Source: a virus
Length of the DNA: 64,000 nt
Reading direction: 5' to 3' (one strand)
Virus record (IMG/VR): IMGVR_UViG_3300029787_000023
Span: 6,215-70,214 of that record
In this document: piece after piece, positions 20,201-64,000 of the stretch
Layout: each line of letters starts with the position of its first letter
How positions within the stretch are numbered: position 1 is the first letter of the stretch
The notes under the pieces: model-generated
What the model was told of the DNA's origin: nothing
The model's input: the letters and a program-made list of their open reading frames with translations, nothing else
Database searches by the model: none
Translations under genes and position numbers: made by a program

Positions 20201-20660
20201 TAGACCCTACCATTATCGTGTTGTACGTCAGGGGTCCGAGGAATCTGACTCAGTCTACCAAGGCCGCATAATCGAGGCAGCAAACAGAGGTGACGTGTTC
20301 TCCGCCGCCTACCACTTTCAGAACACCGGTCCGTACGGCGTAACTTTCACCTACCCCGGCGACGCCTTCAATGATCTCGCTCCAACTGATCAAGCCATAC
20401 TTATGGAAGCTGCGAAGAGGTACGACGAGGCTATCGCGCGCCGGCAACCTTACTGGGCAGCCGCTAACGCTGACACGAGGGCTCAGTCGGAAATCTCAGC
20501 CAGACCAAGGCAGGCGCTATACGGAACTCGCCGCGGTAGAATCCGGGGCGGTGATCTAACCCGATATGACGCATCTTCCCTTTATGGTCAGCTGGCTGTG
20601 TTAAACTTCGCTTATGCACGCCTGCTCACAGGTACAGGTGACGCGCCCGAGACGGATTAA
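17280..20660 (+). CDS. Large putative internal virion protein (1126 aa)
   Basis: Pro/Thr-rich N-terminus (VTTQPE twice, PDPDPDP, poly-Thr); coupled to its neighbours. Confidence 0.6.
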   Translation: MSEPAPIEQPSTTAPPMPPRVPASQRVNTQGAIIEEASGSDALFDPFAEPLPEIVEAAPEPVQVTTQPEVTTQPTPTLTPDPDPDPVPAPGPDLTQELERPAQTTTTTTRTTTPTTTTLTSAPTETAEPEPEEEESRYGAYAGEDGNIDYSQIESMQAVQDLALGLGSDTFDEAGIEQGQNVVRDMDFRQLMGQLPEEEQEAVVNARPMRVLEVRDFLAAQAGGGGVPVPFDYGTLSDFETYDPTTGELINKELTQAMVNELIESGGWRGDRAQTGFWVSSQEAVDDFDRAREALSGFQGLRDINRLLSETNPLDSEAEMRGWRTDDNAPTTDGFMWGSRGFNDPAPGDVEANPVSDATAAGGGGWRATNGMYVVRQTQDPGTTIFPTIRGETIQRTSPGLGRSPNPYIYENDEARLLEQEEYTLWENQLQHYGQHQQGRLTPDERAAIRREAASSNAVIHMHHNLESRNVDLDTQFYNLSGPARANLMFHQGVFLGQQLAPLGNARDGTDQNAGYWTIPARRAALETLRAKETATARQLRGNLHRSVRRMYQAAAMLHQFPYERINAMLPANLQSSELGIDTPEGGRVGAYGQMRQGVPEAAQREYDRMIYGQLTADDLDDLTAGLSEHRRLYAENRQPPDWMMIIEDAPGRARGGATYERLHEIIKSQLVLRGGTTGGDMQPLHAAFYTERDQAAARAEMRRLNSQRVALNQATLVAYRSGDPEATAMGDALAVLDQRIARQQIETDPREVVSSTTATVQNAPDGSAGAVILAMAGEAPDPTSATPGATLPGPRLTYPARITRESNPARRAELESEYLADLLTTNLTRTMSVQLQIRQNLAVVQDTTDKIEATDTGLMRGLALPSGSGADTGALGITQATSPNLLRVITENGGLSHNDPNNDPIAQARARLQREFSLIRDRNPQVDADDYGSMVDYFLTAMVQNENVYMRPAVPYRQRRTVEVDDGQGGTNTRPYHYRVVRQGSEESDSVYQGRIIEAANRGDVFSAAYHFQNTGPYGVTFTYPGDAFNDLAPTDQAILMEAAKRYDEAIARRQPYWAAANADTRAQSEISARPRQALYGTRRGRIRGGDLTRYDASSLYGQLAVLNFAYARLLTGTGDAPETD

Positions 20661-20663
20661 ACC

Positions 20664-42825: not shown

Positions 42826-42882
42826 TCTTGAGGAGGCGCAGGGAGGCATGGCCTACAGATGCCTCACCCCCTTAGGAGTGTA

Positions 42883-45642
42883 ATGTTGCAACCTCTTGAA
42901 AAGCGATACGACCCACAAAGTTGTGGCGCTCGATGCGACATTTGCCCTCTCAGGAAGAATGGTGAACTATCGGATGACGAATGGTCACCAGTCCCTCCTG
43001 AGATACACAACGGAGCCACGACACTTGCTGTGACGGAAGCTCCCGGTCTTGAGGAGGTCGGAAGAGGCCGACCCCTCATAGGCCGTTCTGGTAGAGAGTG
43101 GGGCAATGCTCTACTCGCTATCGCTAAGAAGCGGCCAGACATCGATCTAACAAACGTCATTCTCTGCAGACCCCCAGGTCAACCATCTGGTGCGTGGACT
43201 CGCATGGAGAAGAAGCTTGATCAAATCAACAGACGGAGAAGCAAGGAGGGTAAAGACCCTCTACCTCACCCGGCTACATGCTGCCGACCTCGTCTGCTGA
43301 ACACAGCGTCCAGGTACCGTCACATCATCACTTTAGGTAAGACAGCGACACAAGCCCTGACAGGCACAAGCGCATCGATTCATGCGTCTCGAGGCGGCCC
43401 TGTATGGGTAGACGAGGAGTGGCGTATGGTGCCCAACAGAGGCGCCCACATGATCATGCCTACGCTGCATCCATCATTTGTCGTGCGCTCTCCCAGCTGG
43501 AGAAGCGTTCTTCATTCAGACTTAGCGAAGGGGTTTCGTTGGTTTGAGAATCGGCTGCGGTGGACTGACCCCGACATCTTATGGAGACCTACCCCTGATG
43601 AGCTTGTAGCGTGGTTGAGCCAAGCCGCGCCCTTTTGGTCATACGACGTCGAGACCGACGGCAAAGATGCTCTGGCCTGCCGATTACGCACCATAGCCAT
43701 CGCCACACCTGACCTCGACAAGATGGGCAAGGCAGCACGGGCAGAGATCTCAACAGTCTCCCAAGCAGTAGGCATCAGCATCCTGTCGGCAGATGGCGGA
43801 ACAAAGTTCTACTCGCAAGAAGACGAAGACGCGATCAAGCAGATACTCATGACTGCAATGACCGATGGTCGCGTATGGGTTGGACACAATGCCGGGTTCT
43901 TCGACCGCTTAGTCATAGAGCGTTGGCTTGGTATTGCTCCAGCTCCTTTGGTAGACACACTCTTCCCCACACGCTTTCGCGCACCAGACCTGCCCAAAGG
44001 ACTGAAGACGATCGGCTCCATCCTCACAGATGTAGAGCGCTGGGAGACGTCAGAGAAGGGCGTCAAGATCGCAACAGGTGCAACAGATGACGATGAGCTG
44101 TTGCGCTACAACATCGTCGACGCAGTGGTCAATGCTCGAATCGTTGTACCGCTCATTGATGCGTCATCGAATGCAGGCGCCTTCCGACCTCTCAACCAAG
44201 AGTTCAAGCCGCGAGGATGGGGCGAGGGTAAGCCTTGGAATCTGTTCGAGGTAGACCACAAGACTCAAGAGATGTGCCTTGAGATGCACCGCAACGGTGT
44301 GTGGGTGGATCAAAAGATTCGTATGGGTCTCGAAGTCGAATACACCGTCAGTATCGACAAGAGACGAAAGAAGCTGGACGAGATGGCTCGAAGCATCGGG
44401 CTGAAGAAGCTGGACATGAAGTCAGTCAACGATGACGGCTTCAACCCAGGATCTGCAGATCAGATACGCAATCTCTTCTACAACAAGTGGAAGCTGTCGA
44501 TTCCACCACACATGGAGTCTCGCGACTTCTTCACCGAGTCAGGACTACCCGGCACCGGCGATGCGGTACTTCGAGGTCATCTGTCCAACCCTGGTCTGTC
44601 GGCCGCGCAGAAAGCGTTTATCTACGAGCTGAGACTATACCGTCGAGAGAAGAACAAGATACTCGGTACAGTCCTTCTGCCTATGCAGAGAAGAGACGTC
44701 GACCCCAAGAAAGGTCTTGTATGGCAAGACGGTCGTGTTCGAAGCAACTGGAACGCACACACCACCAGTGTCGGACGCCTGAGCTCAAGCGGCCCCAACC
44801 TACAGAACATCGGTAACCGTAAGGGACAAGGCAGACTCAAGAGCATCTTCGCTGCACCACCAGGCCGCGCCTACATCGGGGCTGACCTCGATCAAGCCCA
44901 TCTTCGAATCACCGCAAGCTTCTGGCAGATCCCTCGTCTACTTGAGTGCTTCGTAGAGAACAAGGACCCACACAACCTGCTGGCCTATGACATCTTCGGC
45001 AGCAAGTTCAAGCATGCCGATGGTTGGGGGCCTGATGGGTTCAGCCTTCTCAAGAAGCCGATAGGCGGGCAGGCCAAAGCCATGCGAGACGTCATGAAGA
45101 CGTTCCGCTATGCATCTATCTACTGGGCCGACCCCAGTACAGTTTGGCAGGTCCTAACGTCAACAGAGACAAACGACGGCAAGCTGCCCTACTTGGACAT
45201 CGAGCCCAGAGAAGTCAGGCACTTTCACCAGCAGTGGTTGGAAGCTGAGCCTGAGTGGATGGACGCTTGGGGTCGAATGCTCGAGATTTACCGCGAACAA
45301 GGCTATATGGAAGAACCTGTCCTGGGTCGGCGATCCGGGAATTTGTCTGATGGAAAGAAAAATGAAGTCGTCAACTTCCCTGTGCTGGCCGCTGAAAGTT
45401 CACTCATGCGGCTGGCAGAACAAGAAATTATCTCTGCGTTCCCTTTCGGGTTCGCTGGCCCAGGAACAGGTCTTATCCACCAGTGTCACGACAGCGTCTG
45501 CATCGAAGTCCCTGATGAGGGGGAAGAGCAGCTGGAGAAGTGGAGACAGCAAGTTGAAGAGTGTATGACCCTGACCATACCTGGCTGGGAAGTTGTACTC
45601 ACATCAGAAGCCGATATAGGCAAAAACTTAAAGGAGGTCTAA
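42883..45642 (+). CDS. Family A DNA polymerase with N-terminal family-4 uracil-DNA glycosylase-like domain and 3'-5' exonuclease
   Basis: UDG: CARCDICPL, EAPGLEE...PLIGRSG, TNVILCRPP, TLGKTA, TLHPS. Exonuclease: YDVET, GHNAGFFD, YNIVD. Polymerase: GRLSSSGPNLQNI, DLDQAHLR, RDVMKTFRYASIY, HQCHDS. AGGAG RBS before ATG 42883. Confidence 0.93.
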   Translation: MLQPLEKRYDPQSCGARCDICPLRKNGELSDDEWSPVPPEIHNGATTLAVTEAPGLEEVGRGRPLIGRSGREWGNALLAIAKKRPDIDLTNVILCRPPGQPSGAWTRMEKKLDQINRRRSKEGKDPLPHPATCCRPRLLNTASRYRHIITLGKTATQALTGTSASIHASRGGPVWVDEEWRMVPNRGAHMIMPTLHPSFVVRSPSWRSVLHSDLAKGFRWFENRLRWTDPDILWRPTPDELVAWLSQAAPFWSYDVETDGKDALACRLRTIAIATPDLDKMGKAARAEISTVSQAVGISILSADGGTKFYSQEDEDAIKQILMTAMTDGRVWVGHNAGFFDRLVIERWLGIAPAPLVDTLFPTRFRAPDLPKGLKTIGSILTDVERWETSEKGVKIATGATDDDELLRYNIVDAVVNARIVVPLIDASSNAGAFRPLNQEFKPRGWGEGKPWNLFEVDHKTQEMCLEMHRNGVWVDQKIRMGLEVEYTVSIDKRRKKLDEMARSIGLKKLDMKSVNDDGFNPGSADQIRNLFYNKWKLSIPPHMESRDFFTESGLPGTGDAVLRGHLSNPGLSAAQKAFIYELRLYRREKNKILGTVLLPMQRRDVDPKKGLVWQDGRVRSNWNAHTTSVGRLSSSGPNLQNIGNRKGQGRLKSIFAAPPGRAYIGADLDQAHLRITASFWQIPRLLECFVENKDPHNLLAYDIFGSKFKHADGWGPDGFSLLKKPIGGQAKAMRDVMKTFRYASIYWADPSTVWQVLTSTETNDGKLPYLDIEPREVRHFHQQWLEAEPEWMDAWGRMLEIYREQGYMEEPVLGRRSGNLSDGKKNEVVNFPVLAAESSLMRLAEQEIISAFPFGFAGPGTGLIHQCHDSVCIEVPDEGEEQLEKWRQQVEECMTLTIPGWEVVLTSEADIGKNLKEV

Positions 45643-48259: not shown

Positions 48260-50323
48260 ATGACAGTCATGGGAGTGACACAAGAAACTAACGACATTTT
48301 GAGCGGCCTCCTTGAAGCGGTGAAGAGTGCGGACAATGATGCCAAGAAGCAAGCATGGGCAGGCGTGCAAGACCCTGACGTGCTCGACGCACTGGCAGAC
48401 GAATGGAAGAAAGACAGTGAGCGTATCAGCACCATGCTGTCTACGATCGAGTCTGTACCGGGCCAAGTAAACAAGGCAAGGAACCTTCGCTCTGCAATCA
48501 AGCGTCTCGCAGACGAGCGCATGCAGAAGATCATCGAGTCTCAAGTGACTATGATGGAGCAGGAGCTCTTGGCTCTCTGTACGATGAGCGCGGCTCTCGG
48601 AGCCAGTTCTCCTCCAGCTACCGTCATCGAGAAGTCGGTGCTCGATATGCTGCGCGTACCGAGAGGCTATGAGATCGACGTCTCTGGCGTATACAAGCTG
48701 AGCGCAGGAATGGACGGAGACATCAGCAGAAGTCGAGTGGCTCCAGCTCCTATCTTTATATCGGGCCGGACCATCGATGTGCTCACCGGAGAAGCGAAGC
48801 GACAGGTTGTCTGGCGCGGCCCCGCCGGATGGTGCTCCAGAGTGATCGACCGCCGGACGATCTTAGACACCTCGCGGATCATGGCACTGGCAGACCTCGA
48901 AGCGCCGGTCAGCAGCAACCACATCTCACAGGTTGTCTCCTACCTTGCTGACTTCGAAGCGGAAAACAACCACCGCTTCCCTGCGGTACAGTCGGCGTCC
49001 CGCATGGGGTGGCTACCAGATGGCGGTTTCCTTTTACCGGACAAACACTATACGACAGATCAAAAGCCATCTTCGTTCGCGTTGACCGCACCTCCAGGAC
49101 TGGAGACCATCTCGCAAGGATGGAAGAGCAAGGGTTCTTGGTCCGAGTGGAAAGTCGCGATCGAGAACGTACTCGAGTATCCGTACATGATGATCGCCAT
49201 CTATGCTTCAGCCGCAGCCCCCATCCTCGAAGTACTGAAGCTACCCGGCTTCGTCGTGGACTTCAGCGGTGAGACTTCGGGCGGTAAGACTACGGCGCTT
49301 CGATTGGCTGCGTCTGTGTGGGGTAAGCCTTCTGACAGCTACCCCACGGCTATGTACAGCTGGGATGCCACCAAGGTCTGGATCGAGCGTACTACCGGAT
49401 ACCTGCACAGCCTGCCCCTCATCCTCGACGAGACCAAGCGAGTTCGTCACCCCCGGATGATCCGTGACGTCATCTACGACTTCTGCCAAGGTCAGGGTCG
49501 CGGTCGAGGTAACCCGGATGGCACGCGTCGTATCGAGTCTTGGCGCACCGTGCTCATCAGTTCTGGAGAAGGTGCTGCGACCTCGTTCAGCCAAGACGCA
49601 GGTACGCGAGCTCGGGTTCTCAGCCTCAAGGGCAAGCCTTTGGGAGATGATCCCAGAGCAGGCGGCAAGATGAGTGAGAACTTGCAGGTCGACCTGGCAG
49701 GCACCTATGGTCACCTGGGTCGGCGCATCATCGAATACTTGGTCGGCAACCAAAAGAGCCATGACCGCATTCGTGAGATCTTCCGCAACTCGAGAGATGG
49801 TTACGCGGCTATCGCTAAGACTGCTGTGGCTCGACGTCACGCGGCTCACTTGGCTGCACTCGACGTCGCAGCTACTATCGTCCATCAGATGGGTATACCC
49901 AAGCCTGTAGAAGATCCCTTCGCGCACTTGATCGAGAGTGCCTTCGCTGCAGGAGAAGACGCAGACAGGCCACTGTCAGCCATGCAGGACTTAGTCAGCT
50001 GGTGTGCCGCCAACCAAGCACGATTCTATGGTCGACATGATACGTCTTCGATGGGCATCGCTCGGGTACCGCACTCGGGATGGGGTGGAAGCTGGAGCGG
50101 CAAAGACGACTGGGACTACATCGCAGTCACAGCACTGACTATCCGAGAAGTACTCAAGGAGCTGGGCTACCACCCAGAAGAACTCCTCACTCGATGGGAC
50201 GAGCGTGAGTGGTTGTACCGTGGCCGCGGTCGAAACAGGACTCGAGTGGTGCGCGTGGATGGTGTATCGATTCGTTGCTACTGCATCAAGAGAAGCACTG
50301 CAGACCTGGCATTGGAAGACTGA
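48260..50323 (+). CDS. DUF927-domain replicative helicase/ATPase
   Basis: SASRMGW, FSGETSGGKTTAL, SVWG, PLILDE, GQGRGR, WRTVLISSGE, TYGHLGR, and a C-terminal winged-helix-like region. Confidence 0.85.
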   Translation: MTVMGVTQETNDILSGLLEAVKSADNDAKKQAWAGVQDPDVLDALADEWKKDSERISTMLSTIESVPGQVNKARNLRSAIKRLADERMQKIIESQVTMMEQELLALCTMSAALGASSPPATVIEKSVLDMLRVPRGYEIDVSGVYKLSAGMDGDISRSRVAPAPIFISGRTIDVLTGEAKRQVVWRGPAGWCSRVIDRRTILDTSRIMALADLEAPVSSNHISQVVSYLADFEAENNHRFPAVQSASRMGWLPDGGFLLPDKHYTTDQKPSSFALTAPPGLETISQGWKSKGSWSEWKVAIENVLEYPYMMIAIYASAAAPILEVLKLPGFVVDFSGETSGGKTTALRLAASVWGKPSDSYPTAMYSWDATKVWIERTTGYLHSLPLILDETKRVRHPRMIRDVIYDFCQGQGRGRGNPDGTRRIESWRTVLISSGEGAATSFSQDAGTRARVLSLKGKPLGDDPRAGGKMSENLQVDLAGTYGHLGRRIIEYLVGNQKSHDRIREIFRNSRDGYAAIAKTAVARRHAAHLAALDVAATIVHQMGIPKPVEDPFAHLIESAFAAGEDADRPLSAMQDLVSWCAANQARFYGRHDTSSMGIARVPHSGWGGSWSGKDDWDYIAVTALTIREVLKELGYHPEELLTRWDEREWLYRGRGRNRTRVVRVDGVSIRCYCIKRSTADLALED

Positions 50324-52057: not shown

Positions 52058-52598
52058 GATCCAGCACGCCCCACACCGGAGACAGCAGGTAGTTTGCGTT
52101 GTGCTTACTCATAACTTCGAGCGCCCAGTCATAGTCCTGCCGGGAGCCGATCACGATCTTGACCTCGTCACCCTCGCCAAGCAGTTCGATATTCGACCAC
52201 AAGTTCTTGGCTGATTCGCCTGAGCTCGGTGCCTTCAAGTCCATGATCGTGCTGACACTCAGCGGTACTTCGGCCACGCTGATCGAGCCCGACGTCTCAA
52301 GTAAGACCTCGTAGCCTTCATCGAGGAGCGTCTGCATCAGAGTCATGCACTCCTTCTGAGCCAAGGGTTCACCCCCTGTGACTTGCACTAAGGGTATCTC
52401 CAGTTCGTCGACCTTCGATATGATCTGCTCGATCGACATCCAGTCCCCGCCGCTGAAGGTGTACTCAGAGTCGCACCACGTGCAGCGTAGGTTGCAGCCT
52501 GTCAGACGCACAAAGGCGCAGAGACGGCCAGCATGAGTGCTCTCTCCCTGCACCGACGCATAGATCTCTGTGACCTTCAGGCGAGGCAACTGTTGCAC
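51957..52598 (-). CDS. queE: 7-carboxy-7-deazaguanine synthase (radical SAM)
   Basis: EIYASVQGE, FVRLTGCNLRCTWCD (CxxxCxxC), VTGGEPL, LETSG, DLKAPSSG, QVQLHK. Start probably TTG at 52589. Confidence 0.95.
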   Translation of the reverse strand: MQQLPRLKVTEIYASVQGESTHAGRLCAFVRLTGCNLRCTWCDSEYTFSGGDWMSIEQIISKVDELEIPLVQVTGGEPLAQKECMTLMQTLLDEGYEVLLETSGSISVAEVPLSVSTIMDLKAPSSGESAKNLWSNIELLGEGDEVKIVIGSRQDYDWALEVMSKHNANYLLSPVWGVLDPKDLAEWMLQDKVLARMQVQLHKVLWPNKTSGI

Positions 52599-53140
52599 TC
52601 CCCGCAGGGCTCACCGTCTCGGGGCTCGTAGCAAGACCACCAACCATCGAGTTCGATACTTGCGGCTTCATCCTTGATCTCTTGCTTCGTCATGTTGATC
52701 AAGGGGGCCTCGACACTGACACCCCAGTCCGACGCCAGCGTGTCCTGTAGGTCGATCCAATCAGGCCGACAGTCTGGGTAGTCTGCGTTGTCTCCGAGAT
52801 TGGCTCCGTACCACACAGCCTCGGCCCCGATCGAAGAAGCGACGTTGACACCGAAGGCGATCATCACTTGGTTACGAGCTGCAAGTACTCGAGGACCAGG
52901 CGTACCTACACCAAGGTTCATTGTGTCTGTGCCCCACAGAGGTAGGCTCATCTCGATGCTTCTGATCGAGTGACCATCCTTGTGCTTCTGCTGCAACCAC
53001 TTGCTCACAGCTTCAGACTCTTGGGGCGCTGCGGGATGAGCGTAGCGAAAGAACAGGACAGCCAGCTCCTTACCCTCACGGAGCGCACGTTCCGCAAGAA
53101 GCATGGAGTCGAGTCCTCCTGAGAAGAGGAGTAAGATCAT
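52577..53140 (-). CDS. queC: 7-cyano-7-deazaguanine synthase
   Basis: LLFSGGLDS PP-loop, ARN, YPDCRP, APLINMTK, WSCY...PCGECNSC zinc site. Confidence 0.92.
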   Translation of the reverse strand: MILLLFSGGLDSMLLAERALREGKELAVLFFRYAHPAAPQESEAVSKWLQQKHKDGHSIRSIEMSLPLWGTDTMNLGVGTPGPRVLAARNQVMIAFGVNVASSIGAEAVWYGANLGDNADYPDCRPDWIDLQDTLASDWGVSVEAPLINMTKQEIKDEAASIELDGWWSCYEPRDGEPCGECNSCLA

Positions 53141-54224: not shown

Positions 54225-54484
54225 GCTTCCTCCCTTACTACCTGCGCCAGCGGGTTCATAGTCATGTGATTGAGACTGCGGTAGACATCGGCAAAGACCT
54301 CGTTGAAGGCTTGAGTCGCCTGCTCAGGGTCCATGCCGTTGACGATGCAGAGAGTAGCCAAGCAGAGCATGATCTCGCCTGGGGTGCGCTCGTCGTCGAC
54401 GTGACCCTCGACCAGTTCGTACAAGGCACGACGAAACTCGAGTGGTGGGTCGACACGTTGTGCGGCGGGTAGTTTAGCGGACAT
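54221..54484 (-). CDS. Hypothetical protein
   Basis: TAATG-coupled to the Mom-family gene. Confidence 0.6.
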   Translation of the reverse strand: MSAKLPAAQRVDPPLEFRRALYELVEGHVDDERTPGEIMLCLATLCIVNGMDPEQATQAFNEVFADVYRSLNHMTMNPLAQVVREEA

Positions 54485-55266
54485 TATAGTTCTCCCTTTG
54501 GGTATGGTAGGTTTGCCTTGAATCGGCGAGTGGTTTGTTTCTTCTGTCTCTTGTTTCCAAGAGCCCAGACGTAGGCATGATTGCCTGGATGTGATTGCTT
54601 TCTCAGTAGGCCCAGGTCGATGACTCGATCGATCCAGTCGGCCGCTTCCTCGCCAGGTTCACGAAGCGGAGCCCCGATGTCGACGAGCTGACGTTCGACG
54701 TAGAACCTGCCGCGCTCTCCGTTGCGGAGTTTGTTGAGCGTGCGTCGGTAGAAGGTCTGACCCTGCGGTCCGATGTAGGTGATCTTCGATGTGCTCTTAC
54801 CCACATAGATGCCGTTGTGTGCCTGGTAGATCGTGCCCAGATGACCAGGCATGAAAACCGAACCGTCAGGTCTTTCGCGGGGAATGGGGTCGCTGAAGGA
54901 CAGGATGAAGCGTACGTCGGGAAGTCGCTGCTCGACCACTCGGAAGCACTGAGCCAGGAACCACGTCTCCGCATTGGAGGCGACCTCGTCGAGAATGACG
55001 AGCCTGTTCAACTCGACACCTTCATGTTGGTCGGCACCGTCCACGTAGCGGGCGAAGGTCAGCGGGTGGGCAGGCACACCGAAGACGGCGACCCCTACTA
55101 ACTCGGGACCGTCCAGCTTCCACAAGCCGACACGAATCCGCGCAGCAGGGTAGCTGCCACTGTAGTGGTGCTCGGTGATGAACTCCTTGGCGACCTTGTC
55201 AGAGTCGATGGGGATCACCACGTACTTTGACGTGTCAATAACTTTGTCTGGCTTGTGTCTGGACAT
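54484..55266 (-). CDS. mom: Mom-family (GNAT-fold) DNA adenine modification protein
   Basis: FITEHHYSGS, LVGVAVFGVP, ELNRLVILD...NAETWFLA, ILSFSDP, GHLGTIYQAHNGIYVG: the motif series of Mu Mom homologs. Confidence 0.85.
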   Translation of the reverse strand: MSRHKPDKVIDTSKYVVIPIDSDKVAKEFITEHHYSGSYPAARIRVGLWKLDGPELVGVAVFGVPAHPLTFARYVDGADQHEGVELNRLVILDEVASNAETWFLAQCFRVVEQRLPDVRFILSFSDPIPRERPDGSVFMPGHLGTIYQAHNGIYVGKSTSKITYIGPQGQTFYRRTLNKLRNGERGRFYVERQLVDIGAPLREPGEEAADWIDRVIDLGLLRKQSHPGNHAYVWALGNKRQKKQTTRRFKANLPYPKGEL

Positions 55267-55315: not shown

Positions 55316-55825
55316 TTACTTACGACGAGGTAGCTTCAAGTCTGTGCCCCAGGTCTCAGCCAGTGACAGTCGAATCATCTCGACAGCAGCCGGACCAAGT
55401 CTCGGGATCTCCAACAGGTCGTCGACGGTGTGCCGAAGTAGCTGCTCGACAGATCGAATCCCGGCGTTGGTCAACAGGTTCACGATGCGCTTCGGGAGTC
55501 GTAGAGCTGAGAGCTCCTGTTCTTCCATCTGGCAGATAAACTCCTCCGCCGCTTCTTCCTCCCCGTCCCACTCTGATGTCGTGATCTCGATCCGATCCTG
55601 CTGCCAGTCCGAGTTGGGCTGGTACACGATCAGTGCGTCGCCCTCGACCATCTCCAGCAGAACCCGTGCGGGTAGGTCGGGGATGGTGCTCGCCAGCTTG
55701 AACAGTCTCGCTGCCTGGTTGCGGCTCTCCTGGGTCAGAGACGTGTCGTCGCTGTTGAGCGCCCACTTGACCAGTCCCGTGACCGTCAGGTAGCTGTTGC
55801 TGTGGATTGTATATTGCGCGTTCAT
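55316..55825 (-). CDS. Protein with RNA polymerase alpha-subunit C-terminal domain-like region
   Basis: LSALRLPKRIVNLLTNAGIRSVEQLL...DLLEIPRLGPAAVEMI follows the alphaCTD pattern (L.LS.R..N.L...GI..V.DL...LL.IPN.G.KS..EI). Confidence 0.8.
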   Translation of the reverse strand: MNAQYTIHSNSYLTVTGLVKWALNSDDTSLTQESRNQAARLFKLASTIPDLPARVLLEMVEGDALIVYQPNSDWQQDRIEITTSEWDGEEEAAEEFICQMEEQELSALRLPKRIVNLLTNAGIRSVEQLLRHTVDDLLEIPRLGPAAVEMIRLSLAETWGTDLKLPRRK

Positions 55826-57783: not shown

Positions 57784-58118
57784 CAGGCACCCCGCGAGAT
57801 GTAGAGACGGTTCGCATCGTCGCGGGTCAACAGGTCGCCCATGGCGAAGACCACACCAGCCTCGATAGCGACGGTGTAGCTGATGCCACCCTTCGTCGCG
57901 TTGGCCTGGTATGCGAAGGACTCACCCTCGTTGATACGGACCAGTGTGCGGCCCAGCATGCGACCAGATATACGGACAGTCTTGCCGCTGGCCGCACGCT
58001 TGATGGTGAAGCCGCCGCACGTGTGCAGGCCGACGACCGTGTACTTAGAGCCAGTACGGCTCGTAAACTCAGCGCCGATGTCGACGCCCATGATGGTTGC
58101 TAACTCAGTCATGTTCAC
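57783..58118 (-). CDS. Hypothetical early protein
   Basis: GAGGAG RBS; first gene of the leftward early cassette. Confidence 0.65.
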   Translation of the reverse strand: MNMTELATIMGVDIGAEFTSRTGSKYTVVGLHTCGGFTIKRAASGKTVRISGRMLGRTLVRINEGESFAYQANATKGGISYTVAIEAGVVFAMGDLLTRDDANRLYISRGA

Positions 58119-58212
58119 TCCTCGGGCTCCCGCCCTGTTGACTCTTGAATAATACCAGGTCGTCAGTGTTATGCCAGTCCGTCAGTGATCTCCTGACATT
58201 CTCTTGACAATA

Positions 58213-58496
58213 TGCTACGACTGTAACGACAATGTAACGACCCGTCGTAGCACCCGATAAACAAGGAACAAAGGGAGCTCTCGATCGATTTTATTCAATG
58301 TTACGACCCCTGCGTTTAGAGGGGGGTCTGAAAGTCAGATTCATGATTTATCGACTCAGTCAGTGGAGCGAGCCTTCCCCACGTACCTATAGAACACTTC
58401 ATGTCGTAACATATACTTTTGTGGCCCATTGTCTCGGTCGAACCTGTTGTCTCGATGTAACGACGGGGTCGTAGCAGGGTCGTAGCAGTCGTAACA
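58213..58496. repeat. Cluster of ten TG(C/T)(T/A)ACGAC nonamers (iteron-like; origin or packaging-site candidate)
   Basis: Forward copies at 58213, 58222, 58233, 58299, 58456; reverse copies at 58244, 58403, 58468, 58479, 58488. All in a non-coding gap. Confidence 0.85.
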
Positions 58497-58520
58497 TTTC
58501 GGGTGTGTTATACTGTTCTT

Positions 58521-59036
58521 ATGGATGACACCGACGAAACCACTGCCCCAGCGAATCAGCCGCTGTCGATCGTGCCGACAATCGTAGCTGCGGTCGGCGA
58601 AGAAGAGATCGTCGAGATGCTGGTCGAAGAGAGTCGATTCAAAGGTGAACCAGAACTACGTGCGGCCGCGGCTCGATTACTCGAAGCTGGGTACACAGTT
58701 CAGAGTGTCGCGCGTCGACTTAAAATACGTGCCTCGACTGTGTGGAAATGGTCATCAGAACCTGAGATCGCCGCCTCGATCAGATCCGGTGCCGAATATC
58801 GACGTAAGGTAATAGGTCAAGACCTTGAAGCCGCTGCAGAAGATGCACTCTCAGCTCTTGTAGAGATCGTTCGCGACCCTGGGATCAATCCCAAGGACAG
58901 AGTTAAAGCTTCGGAGGTCATTTTAGACCGATGCGGCTTGATATCCGGCCCAGAATCGGGTCAAACTACCGCTATCGCAGTCGATATTGACTTCGATGAA
59001 CGTCTGGCCCGCATCGTGGCTGGAAATCGGACCTAA
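58521..59036 (+). CDS. Putative terminase small subunit (HTH)
   Basis: HTH (AARLLEAGYTVQSVARRLKIRASTVWKW), then ALSALVEIV...DRVKASEVILDRCG as in TerS-like proteins. TG-extended TATACT -10 upstream. Confidence 0.65.
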   Translation: MDDTDETTAPANQPLSIVPTIVAAVGEEEIVEMLVEESRFKGEPELRAAAARLLEAGYTVQSVARRLKIRASTVWKWSSEPEIAASIRSGAEYRRKVIGQDLEAAAEDALSALVEIVRDPGINPKDRVKASEVILDRCGLISGPESGQTTAIAVDIDFDERLARIVAGNRT

Positions 59037-59037
59037 A

Positions 59038-59415
59038 ATGCACTCAGAATCCCCGAAAATGATCATCATCGCGAAGAAAGACGCCATGGGAGACGAACAT
59101 CCCGACTTTTCCGGTCCCGGATTCGCTTCGGCCCGGAAAATGTTGCTTCTCGCAGCCGCCGGCCCGGAAGAACCGGGAACTATCATCGAAGATGAGGACG
59201 CCGACCCGGTCGGGGAGCCGGAAGAGCCGGATTCGCCGGACGAACTCGCCGAAATGACGCCGGATCACCACGCGGAGATCATGGAGATCGTCGGAGAACT
59301 CCGAAAAGCGTCCGAGACGCATGCCGGACAGGCCGATCGTCTCGAGGAGATCTGCCGGAAGATGTCGGGCGACTCGAGCGACTCCGGCTACGGCGAGGAA
59401 CGCGAACTAACTTGA
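59038..59415 (+). CDS. Acidic hypothetical protein with CCGG-rich coding sequence
   Basis: Starts 1 nt after the TerS-like stop; ELRKASETHAGQADRLE segment. Confidence 0.55.
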   Translation: MHSESPKMIIIAKKDAMGDEHPDFSGPGFASARKMLLLAAAGPEEPGTIIEDEDADPVGEPEEPDSPDELAEMTPDHHAEIMEIVGELRKASETHAGQADRLEEICRKMSGDSSDSGYGEERELT

Positions 59416-59425
59416 GCTCAGCCAG

Positions 59426-59468
59426 AAAACCCCCCACCAGCTCGACGACATGTCGGGCCAATGGGGGG
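59426..59468 (-). terminator. Probable intrinsic terminator between convergent genes
   Basis: cccccca...gctcgac-gacat-gtcgggc...tgggggg stem with TTTT on the minus strand. Confidence 0.5.
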
Positions 59469-59532
59469 CGGGAGTGAACTGCTTACGGTTGACCATCGGT
59501 CACCGGTAACGTATCACCGGTGAACCGACGCG

Positions 59533-59877
59533 TCAAGTCCTGAACTGGTTGATGTAAGTATACATCTGCTCGACCGATAGTCTCTCGGTCCGGCTTAGCC
59601 GGTCGCGGCCGCTCGAGTCCGTGCACGTTAGCGCGTTCAAGTCTTCGAGCCACATCTCGACCGACCGCGGATCGGGCGCCTTTACTTCGTGGAGCTGGGC
59701 CGACACCTTCTCGAGACTGTCTTCGATCCGGCTGGCCTCGGTCTGGACATTGGATATCATCGATAGGATATCCTCCTTCAGTCCGTCGGGGTCTTCTTCG
59801 ATCCGACGTTCGATCTTCCATGCGTGGTTGAATAGGGAATCGAGCGCCGTCTCTGCTGTTTTGATGATCTCGGACAT
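59533..59877 (-). CDS. Hypothetical coiled-coil protein
   Basis: AAGGAGG RBS; 114 aa. Confidence 0.65.
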   Translation of the reverse strand: MSEIIKTAETALDSLFNHAWKIERRIEEDPDGLKEDILSMISNVQTEASRIEDSLEKVSAQLHEVKAPDPRSVEMWLEDLNALTCTDSSGRDRLSRTERLSVEQMYTYINQFRT

Positions 59878-59879
59878 GG

Positions 59880-60134
59880 TTAGTCCTCCTTTGATACGTT
59901 TTCGTTCAGGTGATCGAAGAATGTGATGGCTGTGGCGAGGTTCGCCAGTTCTACTTCGAAGTCGTCGACGTCGTAGTGTGGGCCGGGATCGGATTTCTCG
60001 GGGCTGTCGGGATAGACCCCGTGATCTTTGAGGTAGTCATACGAGCGCTCGATGTAGTCTCCGACCGCGTGCATGATGTCACCCCACTGGCCGACGGTTA
60101 GCGTGATCGTCTTGCGTCTGTCGTGGTCACTCAT
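59880..60134 (-). CDS. Hypothetical protein
   Basis: GGAGG RBS; 84 aa. Confidence 0.6.
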   Translation of the reverse strand: MSDHDRRKTITLTVGQWGDIMHAVGDYIERSYDYLKDHGVYPDSPEKSDPGPHYDVDDFEVELANLATAITFFDHLNENVSKED

Positions 60135-60291
60135 AGCTTCCTCCGCTCAACTCGTGGATGATCTTCTGACGGGACAGGACCCGCTTAACGCGCTCCCAGT
60201 CGATCGCGTCCAGTACTTCTCCCGCGTCTGCGCTCGGGTCGGCGTCTACTTCGTGCAAAATGTGCTCGATGATCTGGATAAGTTCATGCAT
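60127..60291 (-). CDS. Small hypothetical protein
   Basis: MHELIQIIEH start after GGGGGA RBS. Confidence 0.55.
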   Translation of the reverse strand: MHELIQIIEHILHEVDADPSADAGEVLDAIDWERVKRVLSRQKIIHELSGGSYE

Positions 60292-60302
60292 AGCGTCCCC
60301 CC

Positions 60303-60944
60303 TTAGTGCTTGTGGTAGTCGATGTTGTCGACGGTAGAATCCCAGCAGGCTCGGCAATCTCCGCACTGGTTGCCCTGTGTGGGCGCTGGGCACGTGTGGC
60401 CGTCTCCGAAGTCGACGGTGGACGTTGGATAGCCTTGCATGGCCTTAGCGGGGCCTTTGCCTACCATCGGAGCAGAGACGCGGACCGTCAGATTGGCAGG
60501 CCATGAACCCGCAAGCATAGCGCGGGCAGCCTTGATCATGCGAGTCTCACGTGTCGGCGCCCAAAACTGGACATCGGGAAGACTGCGCGCGACTGCGACC
60601 CACTGACGGACGTGATCAAGACTCTGAAAATCTCCGCTGTCATGGATGCGGAAATACGCGTCTGCGGGGTTCGTGTAGCGGTCGATCATGAAGGTCATAG
60701 CCTCGACCCACCGCGGATGTGTCAACGCGTCCAGACGTCGATTCAGACCCTTTTGCACGGATGGCGTCCCGTAGTTACCGCGGAAAGCATAGCAGGAGGC
60801 GCACGTGGAGCCCTTGACTTTGCGTAGCTTTGAGCCTACCTTGCACGCGGATGCAGGTAGAGAGGTAGAATAACCAGGCATTTTGGACGGCGTACCGAGT
60901 CCCGATGCATGACCTATGATGTCTTTCGCTTCTTTAACCAACAT
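60303..60944 (-). CDS. GP88-family Cys-rich (radical-SAM-like) phage protein
   Basis: PSKMPG.S.SLPA..C..GSKL.K..GS.C..CYA, RIHDSGDF, FWAPTRE, NLTVRVS, CPA..QGN.CGDCRACWD. Confidence 0.8.
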   Translation of the reverse strand: MLVKEAKDIIGHASGLGTPSKMPGYSTSLPASACKVGSKLRKVKGSTCASCYAFRGNYGTPSVQKGLNRRLDALTHPRWVEAMTFMIDRYTNPADAYFRIHDSGDFQSLDHVRQWVAVARSLPDVQFWAPTRETRMIKAARAMLAGSWPANLTVRVSAPMVGKGPAKAMQGYPTSTVDFGDGHTCPAPTQGNQCGDCRACWDSTVDNIDYHKH

Positions 60945-60987
60945 GTTTACTCCCTGTGCCGAGTGGGTTGTGTCTCGACATGTTCAT

Positions 60988-61034
60988 AGTTTATAGGGTC
61001 GATACCAAGGTGTCAAGGATAAAATAAAATAAAA
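60988..61034 (-). promoter_or_regulatory. Strong sigma70-type early promoter with UP-like A/T tract
   Basis: Minus strand TTGACA-N17-TAAACT preceded by ttttattttatttta. Confidence 0.75.
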
Positions 61035-61370
61035 TCGATACACCAGTTTAAACCGGTTGAATCGCCAGCTCTTCGATATCTCCGCCGGTCGCCAGCTCCG
61101 CCGGTCGTGCTTCCGATCTTCCGGCCGGCCGGACCTATCATGCGCGCGCGTATCGCCGGCCGGGGCTGCCGGGACTGCCGGCCGACCGACCGGTCGACCG
61201 GATCGGCCGGACCTATCATGGCGAAGCCATGATCTGGACTTGACAAGGCCAGAGCTCGAAACTACTCGAAGGTTCGACTTCGTCGACTTCGAGCGCTGAG
61301 CTCTTGACGTCGAAAGTCAAGGGCTAAAGTGATGGTTCAAGTTTCGTCGACTTCGAGTGTCTCAAGTGTC

Positions 61371-61424
61371 TTGACATTCTCCTGACATAATACTTGACAC
61401 CTTGGTTCGATATCGTGCTATAGT
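61371..61424 (+). promoter_or_regulatory. Rightward early promoter(s)
   Basis: TTGACA at 61371 and 61394; extended -10 TGC-TATAGT at 61416-61424. TTGACACCTTGGT is shared, inverted, with the leftward promoter. Confidence 0.55.
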
Positions 61425-61465
61425 TGTTGTGGGTCGCACCTTTACCTTGACCCATTGGAGTGAAC

Positions 61466-61783
61466 ATGGAAGGCAATATCATGGGACGAAGAAAGTTCTT
61501 TGCACAACTCAGAAAGAGAGGTTTCGTCAAGGCACGTCTACAAATGACGCGCGTAGCCTTGACCTATACTCGCGAGTCTGACCAGCTGTCAGTCACAGTC
61601 CCGAAGAATCATTCGAACACGTTCCACATTTTGGGCGGCAATGGTTCGGTCCCTACTGGTTTTTTCGTTCGGTCGAACCGCAGCCCTGTCCTTGGTCGCC
61701 ATATCCCTATCGAGTGGTGTCCTCTTGAGACCTGTCTTGACATCATCGACGGCGTCATTATCTGCGCCGAAGGGGGTGAGTGA
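61466..61783 (+). CDS. Hypothetical early protein
   Basis: GGAG RBS; start uncertain (61460, 61466 or 61481). Confidence 0.6.
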   Translation: MEGNIMGRRKFFAQLRKRGFVKARLQMTRVALTYTRESDQLSVTVPKNHSNTFHILGGNGSVPTGFFVRSNRSPVLGRHIPIEWCPLETCLDIIDGVIICAEGGE

Positions 61784-62007
61784 TGGAGTTTTCATCGACT
61801 CTCGTTCCTGCCTACGGTCGCGACTATCGCAGCAAGAAGGCTATCCAGTCCGACCTCAAAGAAGGCCGTCTCGACTTCCGTATCTGTGACGTCTCAAGTC
61901 GTTACGACGGTCGCTATATCAATGGACACGACCTATCCGCTGAAGGCTACACTTCAGTGTGGGTCCGCTACGGTAACCTCCGCAAGATTGCACAGGTGAC
62001 ACTATGA
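61780..62007 (+). CDS. Conserved small phage early protein
   Basis: TLVPAYGRDYRSKKA...DF...GRYIN...VRYGNLRK pattern recalled from other phages. Confidence 0.7.
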   Translation: MMEFSSTLVPAYGRDYRSKKAIQSDLKEGRLDFRICDVSSRYDGRYINGHDLSAEGYTSVWVRYGNLRKIAQVTL

Positions 62008-62276
62008 CCGCGCGCGAGTTCCTTGAGTCTGGACTGTGGGCCGCGGTCGACAACGCCCACGATATGCTTATCGGTCCGATGCACGAGACCGAGTATGCCT
62101 TCGGCGTCATCGTCATGGATGTCATGTGGGGTGCTGCCGAGTCGTACCCCGACAGCGGATATCTGAACGTCCAGTATGACGACGACAACGAGGTCCGCTT
62201 CACCCGAGGCGACCTCCGACCGCATCTACTGGCTGTCATTGCCGAGGCCGTCAAGCGCACCGAGGCCGAGTCATAG
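62004..62276 (+). CDS. Hypothetical protein
   Basis: ATGA overlap; 90 aa. Confidence 0.6.
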   Translation: MTAREFLESGLWAAVDNAHDMLIGPMHETEYAFGVIVMDVMWGAAESYPDSGYLNVQYDDDNEVRFTRGDLRPHLLAVIAEAVKRTEAES

Positions 62277-62504
62277 ATTCACTCCGACGCCGGTCGGCCT
62301 TCGGGCCGGCCGGGATACCGCAGCCGCCGGACGCCGGACAATTATAATTATGTTGCTGGCCGTCTCGAAAGAGCTCGGCCGGTTCGCGCTCGAGCTCACC
62401 GCCGGCCGGAAATCCGGGATACCCGCCGGACCGGCCGGACCCGGAACTATCATCGCAAGCGATGCTTGCGACTTGAGCTCGAGCTGATCGCCAGGTCCAG
62501 ACGC

Positions 62505-62537
62505 AGAAAAGCCCCCCGACCCGAAGGCCAGGGGGCT
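62505..62537 (-). terminator. Intrinsic terminator with UUCG loop
   Basis: Minus strand agccccctggcc-ttcg-ggtcggggggct followed by tttct, just after the 62544 stop. Confidence 0.75.
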
Positions 62538-62543
62538 ATTGAT

Positions 62544-62822
62544 TCACGCTTTGCTATTTTGATACGCCCAATACGCATCCATCTCATCCTGCGGATGAGG
62601 TTGCGCGTAGCCGTCATCTCGAAGAGTGTGATACTCGAGGTCGCTGACGGTTGCTCGAGCGCTGTCCTGCGACCACTTCTCTTCGAGTTTCTCATTCTCG
62701 AAGGCCGCATGCTGCAGCGTGTCAAGGGACTCGCTGTCATAGACAGCGAAGCCCCAGGACTCGAGGTATTTCTGCAGGTCGTCTCGATTCATATCGGTGA
62801 ATCGTCCGTAAATTTTAGGCAT
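62544..62822 (-). CDS. Hypothetical protein
   Basis: AAGGAG RBS; LESWGFAVYDSESLDTL. Confidence 0.65.
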   Translation of the reverse strand: MPKIYGRFTDMNRDDLQKYLESWGFAVYDSESLDTLQHAAFENEKLEEKWSQDSARATVSDLEYHTLRDDGYAQPHPQDEMDAYWAYQNSKA

Positions 62823-62832
62823 GTTCATCTCC

Positions 62833-63033
62833 TTATAGGTGGATTGACTTGAGTTCTTCGATTCGTTCTTCCAGTCCTGGCTTGACCCAAGTGTCGGTTT
62901 CTCTGTCCCAGACAGACGCTATCTCGTCTTCGGCCATCCTCTGAAGTTCGTCGGGATGGACGCTGACGTCAACATTCTTTGCCCATGTAAGAAGGGCTTC
63001 TAACTCGAGATCTGTGGTTGAAAGGTCGGGCAT
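62833..63033 (-). CDS. Hypothetical protein
   Basis: GGAG RBS before MPDLSTT. Confidence 0.6.
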   Translation of the reverse strand: MPDLSTTDLELEALLTWAKNVDVSVHPDELQRMAEDEIASVWDRETDTWVKPGLEERIEELKSIHL

Positions 63034-63075
63034 GTTCAGCTCCAAGAGCTCCCCCGAAGGGGAGCTGGCTAAGGT

Positions 63076-63216
63076 TTATCGAATCCGCGTAGCTACGATC
63101 GAGGGATGGTAGCCTTGACAGATTTCAGAGAATTCGGCTTTGCCGAAGTACTTGTTACACTTACGGGTGGACCACTGTTCAGTGACCCCCGTTTCGATGA
63201 AGGTGATTTCCCACAT
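63076..63216 (-). CDS. 46-aa hypothetical protein (not in ORF track)
   Basis: MWEITFIETGVTEQWSTRKCNKYFGKAEFSEICQGYHPSIVATRIR*; GGAG RBS; flanked by twin hairpins. Confidence 0.6.
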   Translation of the reverse strand: MWEITFIETGVTEQWSTRKCNKYFGKAEFSEICQGYHPSIVATRIR

Positions 63217-63257
63217 GGGGACTCCGATGCTCCCCCCGAAGGGGGAGCGGTTAGGGT

Positions 63258-63488
63258 TTAGTCGTAGCCAATCCGAAGTACTTGTAGAGACTTGACCCCT
63301 TCGGCAGGGGTCAAGCCATTGTCGAATGTCCGACGCCAGGGCTTGTCGGCAATGTCAAAGACTCCGAGGCCGATGGCCTCCGTGATGATGCGGTCAACCG
63401 AAGTCAGCCACGTCATGAAATCCCAGTCACCACCGCAGTACTCTTCGAAGTCGGCCATGCGGATGGCCGCCCAGTCATCGGCGTTCAT
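63258..63488 (-). CDS. Hypothetical protein
   Basis: FMTWLTSVD...GLGVFDIADKPWRRTFDNGLTPAE. Confidence 0.65.
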   Translation of the reverse strand: MNADDWAAIRMADFEEYCGGDWDFMTWLTSVDRIITEAIGLGVFDIADKPWRRTFDNGLTPAEGVKSLQVLRIGYD

Positions 63489-63647
63489 GGCGCGTCTCCA
63501 CTGGGCTGAGGATGGCGTGTAGGCTCAGGGTGAATCCCGTAGCCATACACAAGGATGCGATAGACAGAATGAATGTTTCCATAGTTGTTCACTCCCATGG
63601 ATTGTGAAGGGTGCCCCCGCCCCGATATGGGGCGGAGGCCGTGACTC

Positions 63648-63998
63648 TTATCCTTGCTCGTCGATGTCTACTGCAACCTTGACGGCGAAGACGTCGAGGT
63701 ACTTAGTGGTCAGTCGACCGTTCGCAAGCTGGGGTGCCTTCAGTGGCTTCACAAGTGCATCCTTGGCCGTATCCATGGTCTCGAATCGACCCTGCAGGGC
63801 CAACTCGACCACCTTGGCCATCGTCTCAGTATTGACGCGGTTCGCAAGGAGCGCGGCAATCTTCGACCATGGTACGGTAGCAGGCTTAGGCTTGGGCTCG
63901 CCGATGACGATTCCGTAGCCGATACCAGGAACGAAGCGTCCGTGGTACTCACCAGGCTCGAGTAACGCGCGGGGTCCGCACGGCTCGCCTTGTATGTC
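63648..63998 (-). CDS. Hypothetical protein, 5' end outside the window
   Basis: Open frame DIQGEPCGPRALLEPGEYHGR...ATVPWSKIAALLANRVN...DIDEQG*. Confidence 0.6.
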   Translation of the reverse strand, partial: DIQGEPCGPRALLEPGEYHGRFVPGIGYGIVIGEPKPKPATVPWSKIAALLANRVNTETMAKVVELALQGRFETMDTAKDALVKPLKAPQLANGRLTTKYLDVFAVKVAVDIDEQG

Positions 63999-64000
63999 CG

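Follow-up and report, generated by a model that had tools for sequence, protein, structure and literature searches.

Directional CCGG repeat arrays beside the small terminase gene of an uncultured marine phage as candidate packaging-recognition sites

To our knowledge, only for a handful of phages has it been worked out in sequence detail how a terminase recognizes its own DNA, and small-terminase rings appear to be weak DNA binders of little specificity. This question is raised by a 64,000-nucleotide stretch of DNA (the window), which comprises bases 6215-70214 of the 70,214-bp contig of an uncultured marine phage (IMG/VR record IMGVR_UViG_3300029787_000023; contig G+C 55%) and whose 23 source runs are marine or seawater metagenomes, with no RNA run listed among them. 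Beside the small terminase (TerS) gene of this phage, three islands are crowded with the tetranucleotide CCGG. What, then, reads these islands? They are a real, conserved, DNA-level cis element. As to their reader, we tentatively favor the small terminase, for which the islands would be candidate recognition arrays in a pac-like packaging signal.

The genome contains 250 CCGG sites, 40 of which fall within the three islands. Island 1 (59111-59387, + strand) holds 14 sites with starts from 59111 to 59384 and lies inside the gene of an acidic protein. Island 2 (61053-61210, +) holds 13 sites, starting from 61053 to 61207, in a divergent intergenic region, and island 3 (62290-62444, +) holds another 13, starting from 62290 to 62441, in two sub-arrays around an AT-rich core (62339-62353). 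Every 200-bp window with at least seven CCGG belongs to one of these islands, and the maximum elsewhere is six. A first-pass annotation of this DNA, which had counted the sites by hand, proposed these three islands and much the same numbers, and the 9-nt spacings that it listed (59218/59227/59236 and 61160/61169/61178) are exact. Its enrichment claim, which it had wanted checked against composition, also survives that correction: in 1000 dinucleotide-preserving shuffles of each island separately, the mean CCGG counts were 4.0, 3.3 and 3.7 and the maxima 10, 9 and 9, compared to the observed 14, 13 and 13. Because the observed counts exceed those of all shuffles, the local G+C of 63-68% fails to explain them.

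The repeated unit is (G)CCGG(A/T)C and not bare CCGG, with flanks that favor G at -1, A or T at +1 and C at +2; CCGG(A/T)C accounts for 14 of the 40 island sites. The unit is also directional. Across 59000-62600, CCGGA occurs 18 times compared to 6 for TCCGG, GCCGG 28 times compared to 11 for CCGGC, and CCGGAC exceeds GTCCGG by 8:1, and by 8:0 when only the islands are counted. Elsewhere in the genome CCGGA is depleted, with 56 occurrences on both strands where base composition predicts 178 and a Markov model 79, which is the pattern that would be expected from avoidance of stray sites.

Island 1 provides a rationale for regarding the repeats as a DNA signal. The gene that carries it (59038-59415, +) starts 2 nt after the end of terS and encodes a 125-aa acidic protein, in which the island occupies a variable linker. 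Homologues of this protein follow terS in most of the 49 loci scanned, and library scans gave it no family match. The CCGG words of island 1 occupy all three reading frames (7, 5 and 2), and 8 of its 10 proline codons are CCG. In 17 large genes of the phage, CCG makes up 167 of 734 proline codons (23%), and 48 of 312 where the following codon begins with G. This three-frame distribution together with the CCG codon excess indicates that the word is selected as DNA and is not a by-product of the protein.

All three islands share a plan of array, core and array. The core of island 1 is CTATCAT with a short hairpin, that of island 2 is CTATCAT with alternating GC followed by a second CTATCAT and hairpin, and that of island 3 is AT-rich, with CTATCAT and hairpin further on; neither of the first two cores is AT-rich. 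A CTATCAT block preceded by CCGGAC(C) or CCGGAA closes each island. The shared plus-strand motif described in the first-pass annotation, CCGGRMCTATCAT, is exact at 61129, 61207 and 62441 and has one mismatch at 59174, and its copies proved to be longer than described. A repeat search showed that the two CGGCCGGACCTATCATG copies of island 2 form a 17-nt exact repeat (61126-61142 and 61204-61220, +). It also showed that islands 1 and 3 share a 33-nt block, whose first copy (59156-59188, +) ends in CTATCATCG and whose second (62423-62455, +) has GCCGGACCCGGAACTATCATC as its last 21 nt; on alignment the copies are 85% identical, and they are separated by 3267 nt. A further block at 62325-62353 (+) consists of CGCCGGACGCCGGACA followed by the AT-rich core, and was recognized by alignment with three relatives.

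These relatives came from a search with the GP88 protein, encoded between islands 1 and 2, which yielded 26 IMG/VR loci. CCGG islands are present in L003, L004, L005, L007 and L008, with GP88 identities of 95, 70, 69, 62 and 58%, respectively; L009 passes the CCGG count too, but against a background of 16 CCGG per kb. Both the layout in three islands and the CCGGAC unit reappear where the flanking proteins are only 47-63% identical. The order of the three islands is kept in the window, L005, L007 and L008, and in the L004 contig the last two islands adjoin. In the complete genome G001, which contains L008, all 4 paired CCGGAC matches lie in the homologous region, as do all 5 in the 63%-complete record G003 (L007), where they share one strand. 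Alignment of island 3 from the window, L003, L004 and L005 shows an invariant CGCCGGACGCCGGACA before the AT-rich core and a second invariant block of 21 nt that ends in CTATCATC, while the flanks vary; the arrays around these blocks differ in sequence and length, with indels that are not multiples of three, and stay CCGG-rich. CTATCAT is confined to the closest relatives. L007 and L008 keep arrays without it, L045 has CCGGACCTATATT in its place, and across the 49 terS loci it is not enriched (15 on the + strand and 14 on the - strand). The left sub-array of L005 does contain GTCCGG units, and in L007 the CCGG run extends into the 3′ end of terS.

The protein encoded just before island 1 (58503-59036, +) consists of a helix-turn-helix and a long helical hairpin, as assigned with Pfam, PHROG, PDB profiles and Foldseek. 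Its N-terminal helix-turn-helix matches Pfam HTH_23 (E 1.8e-6), and its family comprises 134 matches, many on contigs of 70-74 kb. The PHROG terS family phrog_2538 is matched by 37 of 38 family members (best E 1.1e-9) and two further PHROG terS families by 19 members each, and the family profile matches the small terminases 7joq (E 3e-4) and 6w7t (E 8e-4) in the PDB. The top Foldseek rows for the AlphaFold model (pLDDT 82) are 2ao9, which we take to be terS-like, 7joq, 6w7t and Sf6 small terminases, at weak E values of at least 6e-3. With an N-terminal helix-turn-helix and a putative helical oligomerization core homologous to known TerS proteins, this protein is, as judged by three lines of evidence from sequence and predicted structure, a small terminase. 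A tblastn search of TerS against cultured phages gave no match, nor did a blastn search of 59000-62600 against 50,697 phage records.

The arrays accompany this gene in many lineages. Synteny was tested in 12 of the 26 GP88-anchored loci, and the five island-bearing loci are the only ones with terS and/or the acidic neighbor adjoining (the L003 contig breaks off within the acidic gene); the remaining seven lack both. A terS alignment search gave 51 loci, of which 49 were analyzed after two at 29% identity were dropped. The 500 nt after terS are CCGG-rich in L029/30, L033, L034, L045, L051, L054, L059, L066, L069, L074 (26 CCGG) and L075/76. On the coding strand of terS, CCGGAC exceeds GTCCGG by 14:1 in L034, 13:1 in L075, 7:0 in L045 and 7:1 in L054. 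A terS tree was built from 40 loci and the window, with nine near-duplicates left out, and a row was labeled array-bearing if it had at least 7 CCGG in the 500 nt downstream of terS, which is a crude label. The 12 array-bearing rows lie on deep branches, and of the 29 rows without arrays, 28 group into three clades (12, 7 and 9 rows). On this tree the label can be explained with 4 changes, fewer than in any of 500 shuffles, a pattern that fits an old association of terS with the arrays followed by several losses.

How might a small terminase read such arrays? Island 1 begins 75 nt past the terS stop, in the next gene, and islands 2 and 3 follow at 2.0 and 3.3 kb. In the mechanism that we propose, many weak directional (G)CCGG(A/T)C sites, 4-12 nt apart, would be read by a ring-shaped multimeric TerS with one helix-turn-helix per subunit, so that weak contacts are summed across an island. 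All three islands would jointly form a pac-like packaging-recognition region, either gathered by TerS or serving as alternative start sites. The conserved blocks at the 3′ edges (CCGGAC-C-TATCAT, and CGCCGGACGCCGGACA with the AT-rich core) might be nucleation sites or sites of cutting by the large terminase, and packaging would be directional, beginning or ending beside the putative early-gene cassette that the islands frame. On the TerS side, this reading draws on arrays that are selected as DNA, directional and conserved, and that accompany the terS gene. The same DNA-level selection, strand direction and conservation in relatives support the general proposal of the first-pass annotation, a cis-acting signal in a putative early region. 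Among the more specific functions that it listed, its packaging-site lead with a TerS-like protein fits best in view of the identity of TerS and the arrays beside terS in many lineages.

Several observations weigh against recognition by TerS. Given that 29 of the 41 rows of the terS tree are without arrays, this TerS family does not depend on them. Common descent also confounds the co-occurrence of terS with arrays, and terS itself was the query that gathered the loci. L033 has only 2 CCGG within the acidic gene as called, which again shows that the array label is crude. The three islands extend over 3.3 kb, far wider than any described pac site, and the large terminase gene lies at a distance of 13 kb on the circular map.

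Comparison with described packaging signals is instructive in both directions. P1 pac is built from sub-arrays that flank a distinct core, and the SPP1/SF6 pac region is compact, spanning a few hundred bp. The islands are clusters of hexanucleotide units, and in this they resemble the P1 pac/PacA pair, in which, according to an excerpted account, seven hexanucleotide repeats make up a complex packaging signal at the small-terminase gene (PMC11260489). Unlike P1, however, each cluster here has 13-14 units and the three clusters extend over 3.3 kb, the whole unit has a direction and is no palindrome, and the first cluster lies in the gene after terS and not in terS. Excerpts on SPP1 describe three sets of direct repeats that span promoters and the start of the terS gene, and a helix-turn-helix ring that, in SPP1/SF6, binds by many weak contacts (PMC4737164). 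These three repeat sets at terS parallel our three islands, although they are few and longer. The same excerpts report that the isolated SF6 TerS DNA-binding domain has little preference for pac repeats, which add little to its binding (PMC4737164), and this too counts against the arrays being read by TerS. A full-text literature search for CCGGAC with phage returned nothing on phage cis elements among the matches listed, as judged from the listing. The islands differ from the described pac sites in unit number, in a tripartite 3.3-kb spread around a cassette, in strict direction and in a cluster within the linker of a neighboring gene, and the arrays are most likely, though this assignment is held with caution, a new form of terminase-recognition repeat array.

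The candidate signal is an explicit, countable array in an abundant family of uncultured marine phages. It is directional, kept across deep branches, lost in whole clades and partly written into a coding linker. If the small terminase does read it, the family would offer a natural series for testing recognition by many weak summed contacts, and a practical marker for predicting where packaging starts in phage genomes from metagenomes. Should a terminal repeat or an origin turn out to be what the arrays mark, a key cis element would at least have been located in phages that have no cultured member.

The gene surroundings of the islands bring in a different kind of reader. The islands occupy both converging edges and the divergent center of a 3-kb small-gene cassette, which we call early on the basis of its layout and of GP88 homologues at the ends of several cultured phage records. 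On its left, a leftward operon of four small genes (59533-60944, -) is headed by the GP88-family gene (60303-60944, -; PF17338, E 3.5e-30), has a sigma-70-like promoter from a promoter scan (61016-60988, -) and ends in a terminator-like hairpin with a T run (59430-59469, -; fold -13.2 kcal/mol), which is absent from the list of a consensus terminator scan. Island 2 fills the gap between the leftward promoter and a region with four TTGAC(A/G) hexamers, which precedes a rightward operon of three small genes without matches in family scans (61460-62276, +). Island 3 abuts the terminator, found by a terminator scan, of a long leftward operon (62510-62537, -) that starts with the large terminase and portal genes and runs across the contig junction. 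This arrangement could suggest that the islands are operator or boundary arrays for some phage or host DNA-binding protein and insulate or time the cassette, for example as a roadblock to read-through. In its favor, the islands sit at two converging ends and a divergent center, the rightward operon reaches island 3 without a + strand terminator of its own, and the content of the cassette changes between relatives while the flanking arrays persist. However, TerS and the acidic neighbor aside, no candidate regulator is common to all array-bearing loci, and the position of island 2 relative to promoters is not constant, being upstream here and inside the first rightward gene in L008. We regard a boundary function as doubtful, if credible.

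The AT-rich core of island 3 raises the question of whether the islands are instead a replication origin. In SaPI origins, as excerpted from one report, an AT-rich center divides 6-12 penta- or hexanucleotide iterons, which are oppositely oriented on its two sides and are bound by the C-terminal winged helix of Rep (PMC9371898). This phage encodes a primase-helicase of the self-loading type (48260-50323) with a C-terminal helix-turn-helix domain that resembles the iteron-binding domain of SaPI Rep proteins, so that the islands could be iterons bound by that domain, with sub-arrays flanking a melting core and several clusters acting together. The helicase contains DUF927 and a C-terminal HTH_56 domain and matches the SCC Cch helicase family, and as a reader of the arrays we rank it second after TerS. 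Short repeat clusters, and in island 3 the two sub-arrays around an AT-rich core, recall the SaPI type. A weak hint of co-variation comes from HTH_56, which is 64% identical in the array-bearing G001 and 46-53% in five array-less genomes, a drop somewhat larger than that of the helicase core (77% to 64-72%); terS also follows the helicase gene directly in four of the five array-less complete relatives. Yet G003 keeps its CCGGAC arrays with a very different helicase, 30% identical over residues 242-592 only and without a match in the C-terminal domain. The islands lie 8-12 kb from the helicase gene, which ends at 50323 (island 1 begins at 59111), and not just downstream of it, and their units run one way (8:0) where SaPI iterons face each other. 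The lack of AT-rich cores in islands 1 and 2 also speaks against an origin, as does cumulative GC and AT skew, which tracks gene orientation only and shows no turn at the islands. Iterons beside the helicase, opposed iterons around an AT center and co-variation of helicase domain with iterons, the marks of a SaPI-type origin, were thus not found here, and we consider an origin unlikely. As a separate observation on gene order, terS starts 86-495 nt past the primase-helicase gene in G006, G007, G008 and G009 (L085, L088, L084 and L086), and in the window 8 kb of variable genes (QueC-like, Mom-like and alpha-CTD-like) lie between the two.

The spacing of the two 33-nt blocks allows for yet another arrangement. 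T7 has irregular short-repeat arrays of a directional word on a 7-nt scale by its concatemer junction and early region, and the directional short-word arrays beside the putative early region here are similar. The arrays might form one tripartite system that marks the ends of a small-gene cassette entering the host first. In such a system the blocks at 59156-59188 and 62423-62455 would be two cut sites bounding a terminal repeat of about 3.3 kb with the putative early genes, corresponding to a cassette repeat of 1.7-2.7 kb in relatives. The arrays would then have two roles, as landing pads for the terminase and as signals that stop or hold the DNA while it enters stepwise, with the signal partly written into the disordered linker of a protein-coding gene. 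We judge this set of linked claims to be quite improbable. In contrast to T7, all complete relatives here assemble as circles. Assembled Logan contigs of runs X1, X2, X3 and X5, when placed on the genome, bridge all three islands, without pile-ups of starts or ends and without joints there. The unit depths in X1 (23.9, 32.6, 36.1, 36.4, 46.5 and 47.3), which are contig depths only, misfit a two-fold step over 59189-62455.

Some contigs of relatives do stop at arrays: L003 inside island 1, L004 15 nt after CTATCAT, and L069 in an array. We considered these as termini and rejected them. Most other contig ends of the relatives fall in genes, and in G001, G006 and G007 the two contig ends join as in a circular or arbitrarily cut assembly (G008 is uninformative), so the ends at arrays are read as assembly breaks at repeats. 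In the contig studied here, the two ends match each other imperfectly along some 65 bp (window 63936-64000 and genome 1-66), with a few mismatches, which indicates a circular-type assembly with an arbitrary break; this assembly probably mixes strain variants.

The motif at the island cores bears on a further proposal of the first-pass annotation, namely that each copy carries a hairpin and that the copies are promoters of the N4 type. The early promoters of N4 are a few conserved copies on the same strand, each with a small hairpin of 3-nt loop, that are read by a virion RNA polymerase. We compared single-strand DNA folds with shuffles in two tests. The hairpins are strong in only two of the four window copies, at 61213 (z -2.2/-4.8), where an 8-bp stem with a GAA loop overlaps the second CTATCAT of island 2 (61213-61236, +), and at 62447 (z -2.9/-3.0). 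The hairpin is marginal at 59180 (z -0.8/-1.6) and absent from the copy at 61135 (z +2.0/+0.1). In the relatives L003, L029, L030 and L045, two of nine foldable motif copies reach z < -2, one of which has the same sequence as the window, the other folding 8-9 nt farther along; a tenth copy, at the end of the L029 contig, left too little sequence to fold. In L029 and L030 the hairpin beside the motif is mostly absent. The hairpin claim thus stands for two copies of the window and not as a conserved feature. An Rfam scan of 58000-64000 gave a single chance-level snoRNA row (E 0.3).

Could the islands nevertheless be phage-specific promoters, all rightward, in which CCGGAC-C-TATCAT serves as a -10-like element with a recognition element upstream and a hairpin after it, for a virion-borne or modified RNA polymerase? 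TATCAT, TATAAT or TATATT directly follows CCGGAC in four copies of the window, in the core of island 3 and in L045; in L045 this -10-like element is well placed about 30 nt before a start codon, so that a factor-dependent promoter is conceivable. The motif copies share one orientation within 3.3 kb and, as in N4, are clustered in a putative early region, and a 3669-aa open reading frame (ORF) has the size of the N4 virion polymerase. This ORF belongs to no PHROG or NCBIfam family and has 0 PDB matches at E up to 1, although a very divergent enzyme is conceivable. Its sole Pfam match is a sub-threshold Pro-kumamolisin activation domain (E 2.1e-4; 22.0 bits with a cut-off of 23.5), it lacks the polymerase motif patterns that were looked for, and an ESM Atlas search with the middle of the protein gave weak leads only, to large-polyvalent-protein domains. 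No sigma factor or polymerase was found among the 75 ORFs scanned against Pfam. Furthermore, converging genes lie ahead of the motif copies of islands 1 and 3 (59174 and 62441), the TATCAT hexamers lack a sigma-70 -35 element at the right distance, and CTATCAT is missing from the array-bearing L007 and L008. Neither a virion RNA polymerase gene nor a conserved 3-nt-loop hairpin at a fixed distance was found. Because no phage RNA polymerase was found, the N4-type proposal is poorly supported, and with unconserved hairpins and two of three islands facing converging genes we consider promoters very unlikely.

The CCGG core itself, a 4-bp palindrome typical of restriction-modification sites, suggests a last alternative: decoys for CCGG-recognizing enzymes, as the first-pass annotation had put it, or a methylation-sensing switch like the methylated hexamers of P1 pac. 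CCGG sites are mildly depleted outside the islands, with 210 observed and 263 expected under a Markov model; counted on both strands, the figures are 420 observed, 787 expected from base composition and 526 from the Markov model. Twelve of the GP88 loci (L011-L019, L021, L027 and L028; 40-47% G+C, 5-12.6 kb each) have zero CCGG, which indicates that the word is under selection in this ecological neighborhood. However, a reader of the palindrome has no need for conserved flanks that are asymmetric (G at -1, A/T at +1, C at +2), nor for the conserved 21-nt block, so that decoys leave both the directional CCGG(A/T)C unit and the block unexplained. Dense CCGG sites would also be cut and not protected, and family scans of the ORFs found no DNA methyltransferase. 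A link to CCGG restriction or methylation is therefore the least probable of these functions, and hardly to be expected.

Recognition by the small terminase thus stays our favored reading, and some neighboring repeats of other kinds deserve mention beside it. In L069, the contig end (7980-8162) carries an array with an 8-nt period in which CTGCCGNN is repeated together with CCGGCT units, about 2.5 kb after terS. L006 was dropped as an array-less negative control; it shares no more than GP88 with the window, having neither terS nor the helicase, and so represents a different phage. Its intergenic region (reverse complement 6800-7130, equal to G002:18435-18662 of a 70.8-kb phage) holds four GTCCCTAC copies in two inverted pairs. 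These copies occur only in the GP88-adjacent intergenic region of that genome, and the repeat looks like an ordinary operator.

The wider genome has the gene content of a tailed phage, with a P22/SU10-type portal, large terminase, major capsid protein and tail fiber. Its replication-type genes encode an SNF2 helicase, a family A DNA polymerase and the Cch/SaPI-Rep-like primase-helicase, and QueC-like, Mom-like and RNA polymerase alpha C-terminal-domain proteins are also encoded. The major capsid, large terminase, helicase and GP88 proteins have remote cultured relatives only. In the window and loci L003-L026, the GP88-family protein contains invariant C34, C48, C51, C185, C194, C197 and C200 and an HDSGD-like motif; its predicted alpha/beta model (pLDDT 88.5) has no clear fold match, and its gene is often found at the ends of cultured marine phage records. 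After the tail genes, giant ORFs of 1244, 1126 and 3669 aa follow in succession (13549-31673, +); they have no PHROG, NCBIfam or PDB match and may be internal virion proteins that are ejected. A QueC-like PP-loop enzyme and a Mom-family protein are encoded near each other (52577-53140, -, and 54484-55266, -), a pairing that suggests DNA hypermodification, and no transglycosylase or methyltransferase was seen alongside these genes. The protein encoded at 55316-55825 (-) ends in a domain resembling the C-terminal domain of RNA polymerase alpha (PF03118, E 1.2e-7, and NCBIfam rpoA rows) and may tamper with the host polymerase. Finally, the family A DNA polymerase (42859-45642, +) carries an N-terminal domain of the uracil-DNA-glycosylase superfamily (PF03167, E 2e-13).

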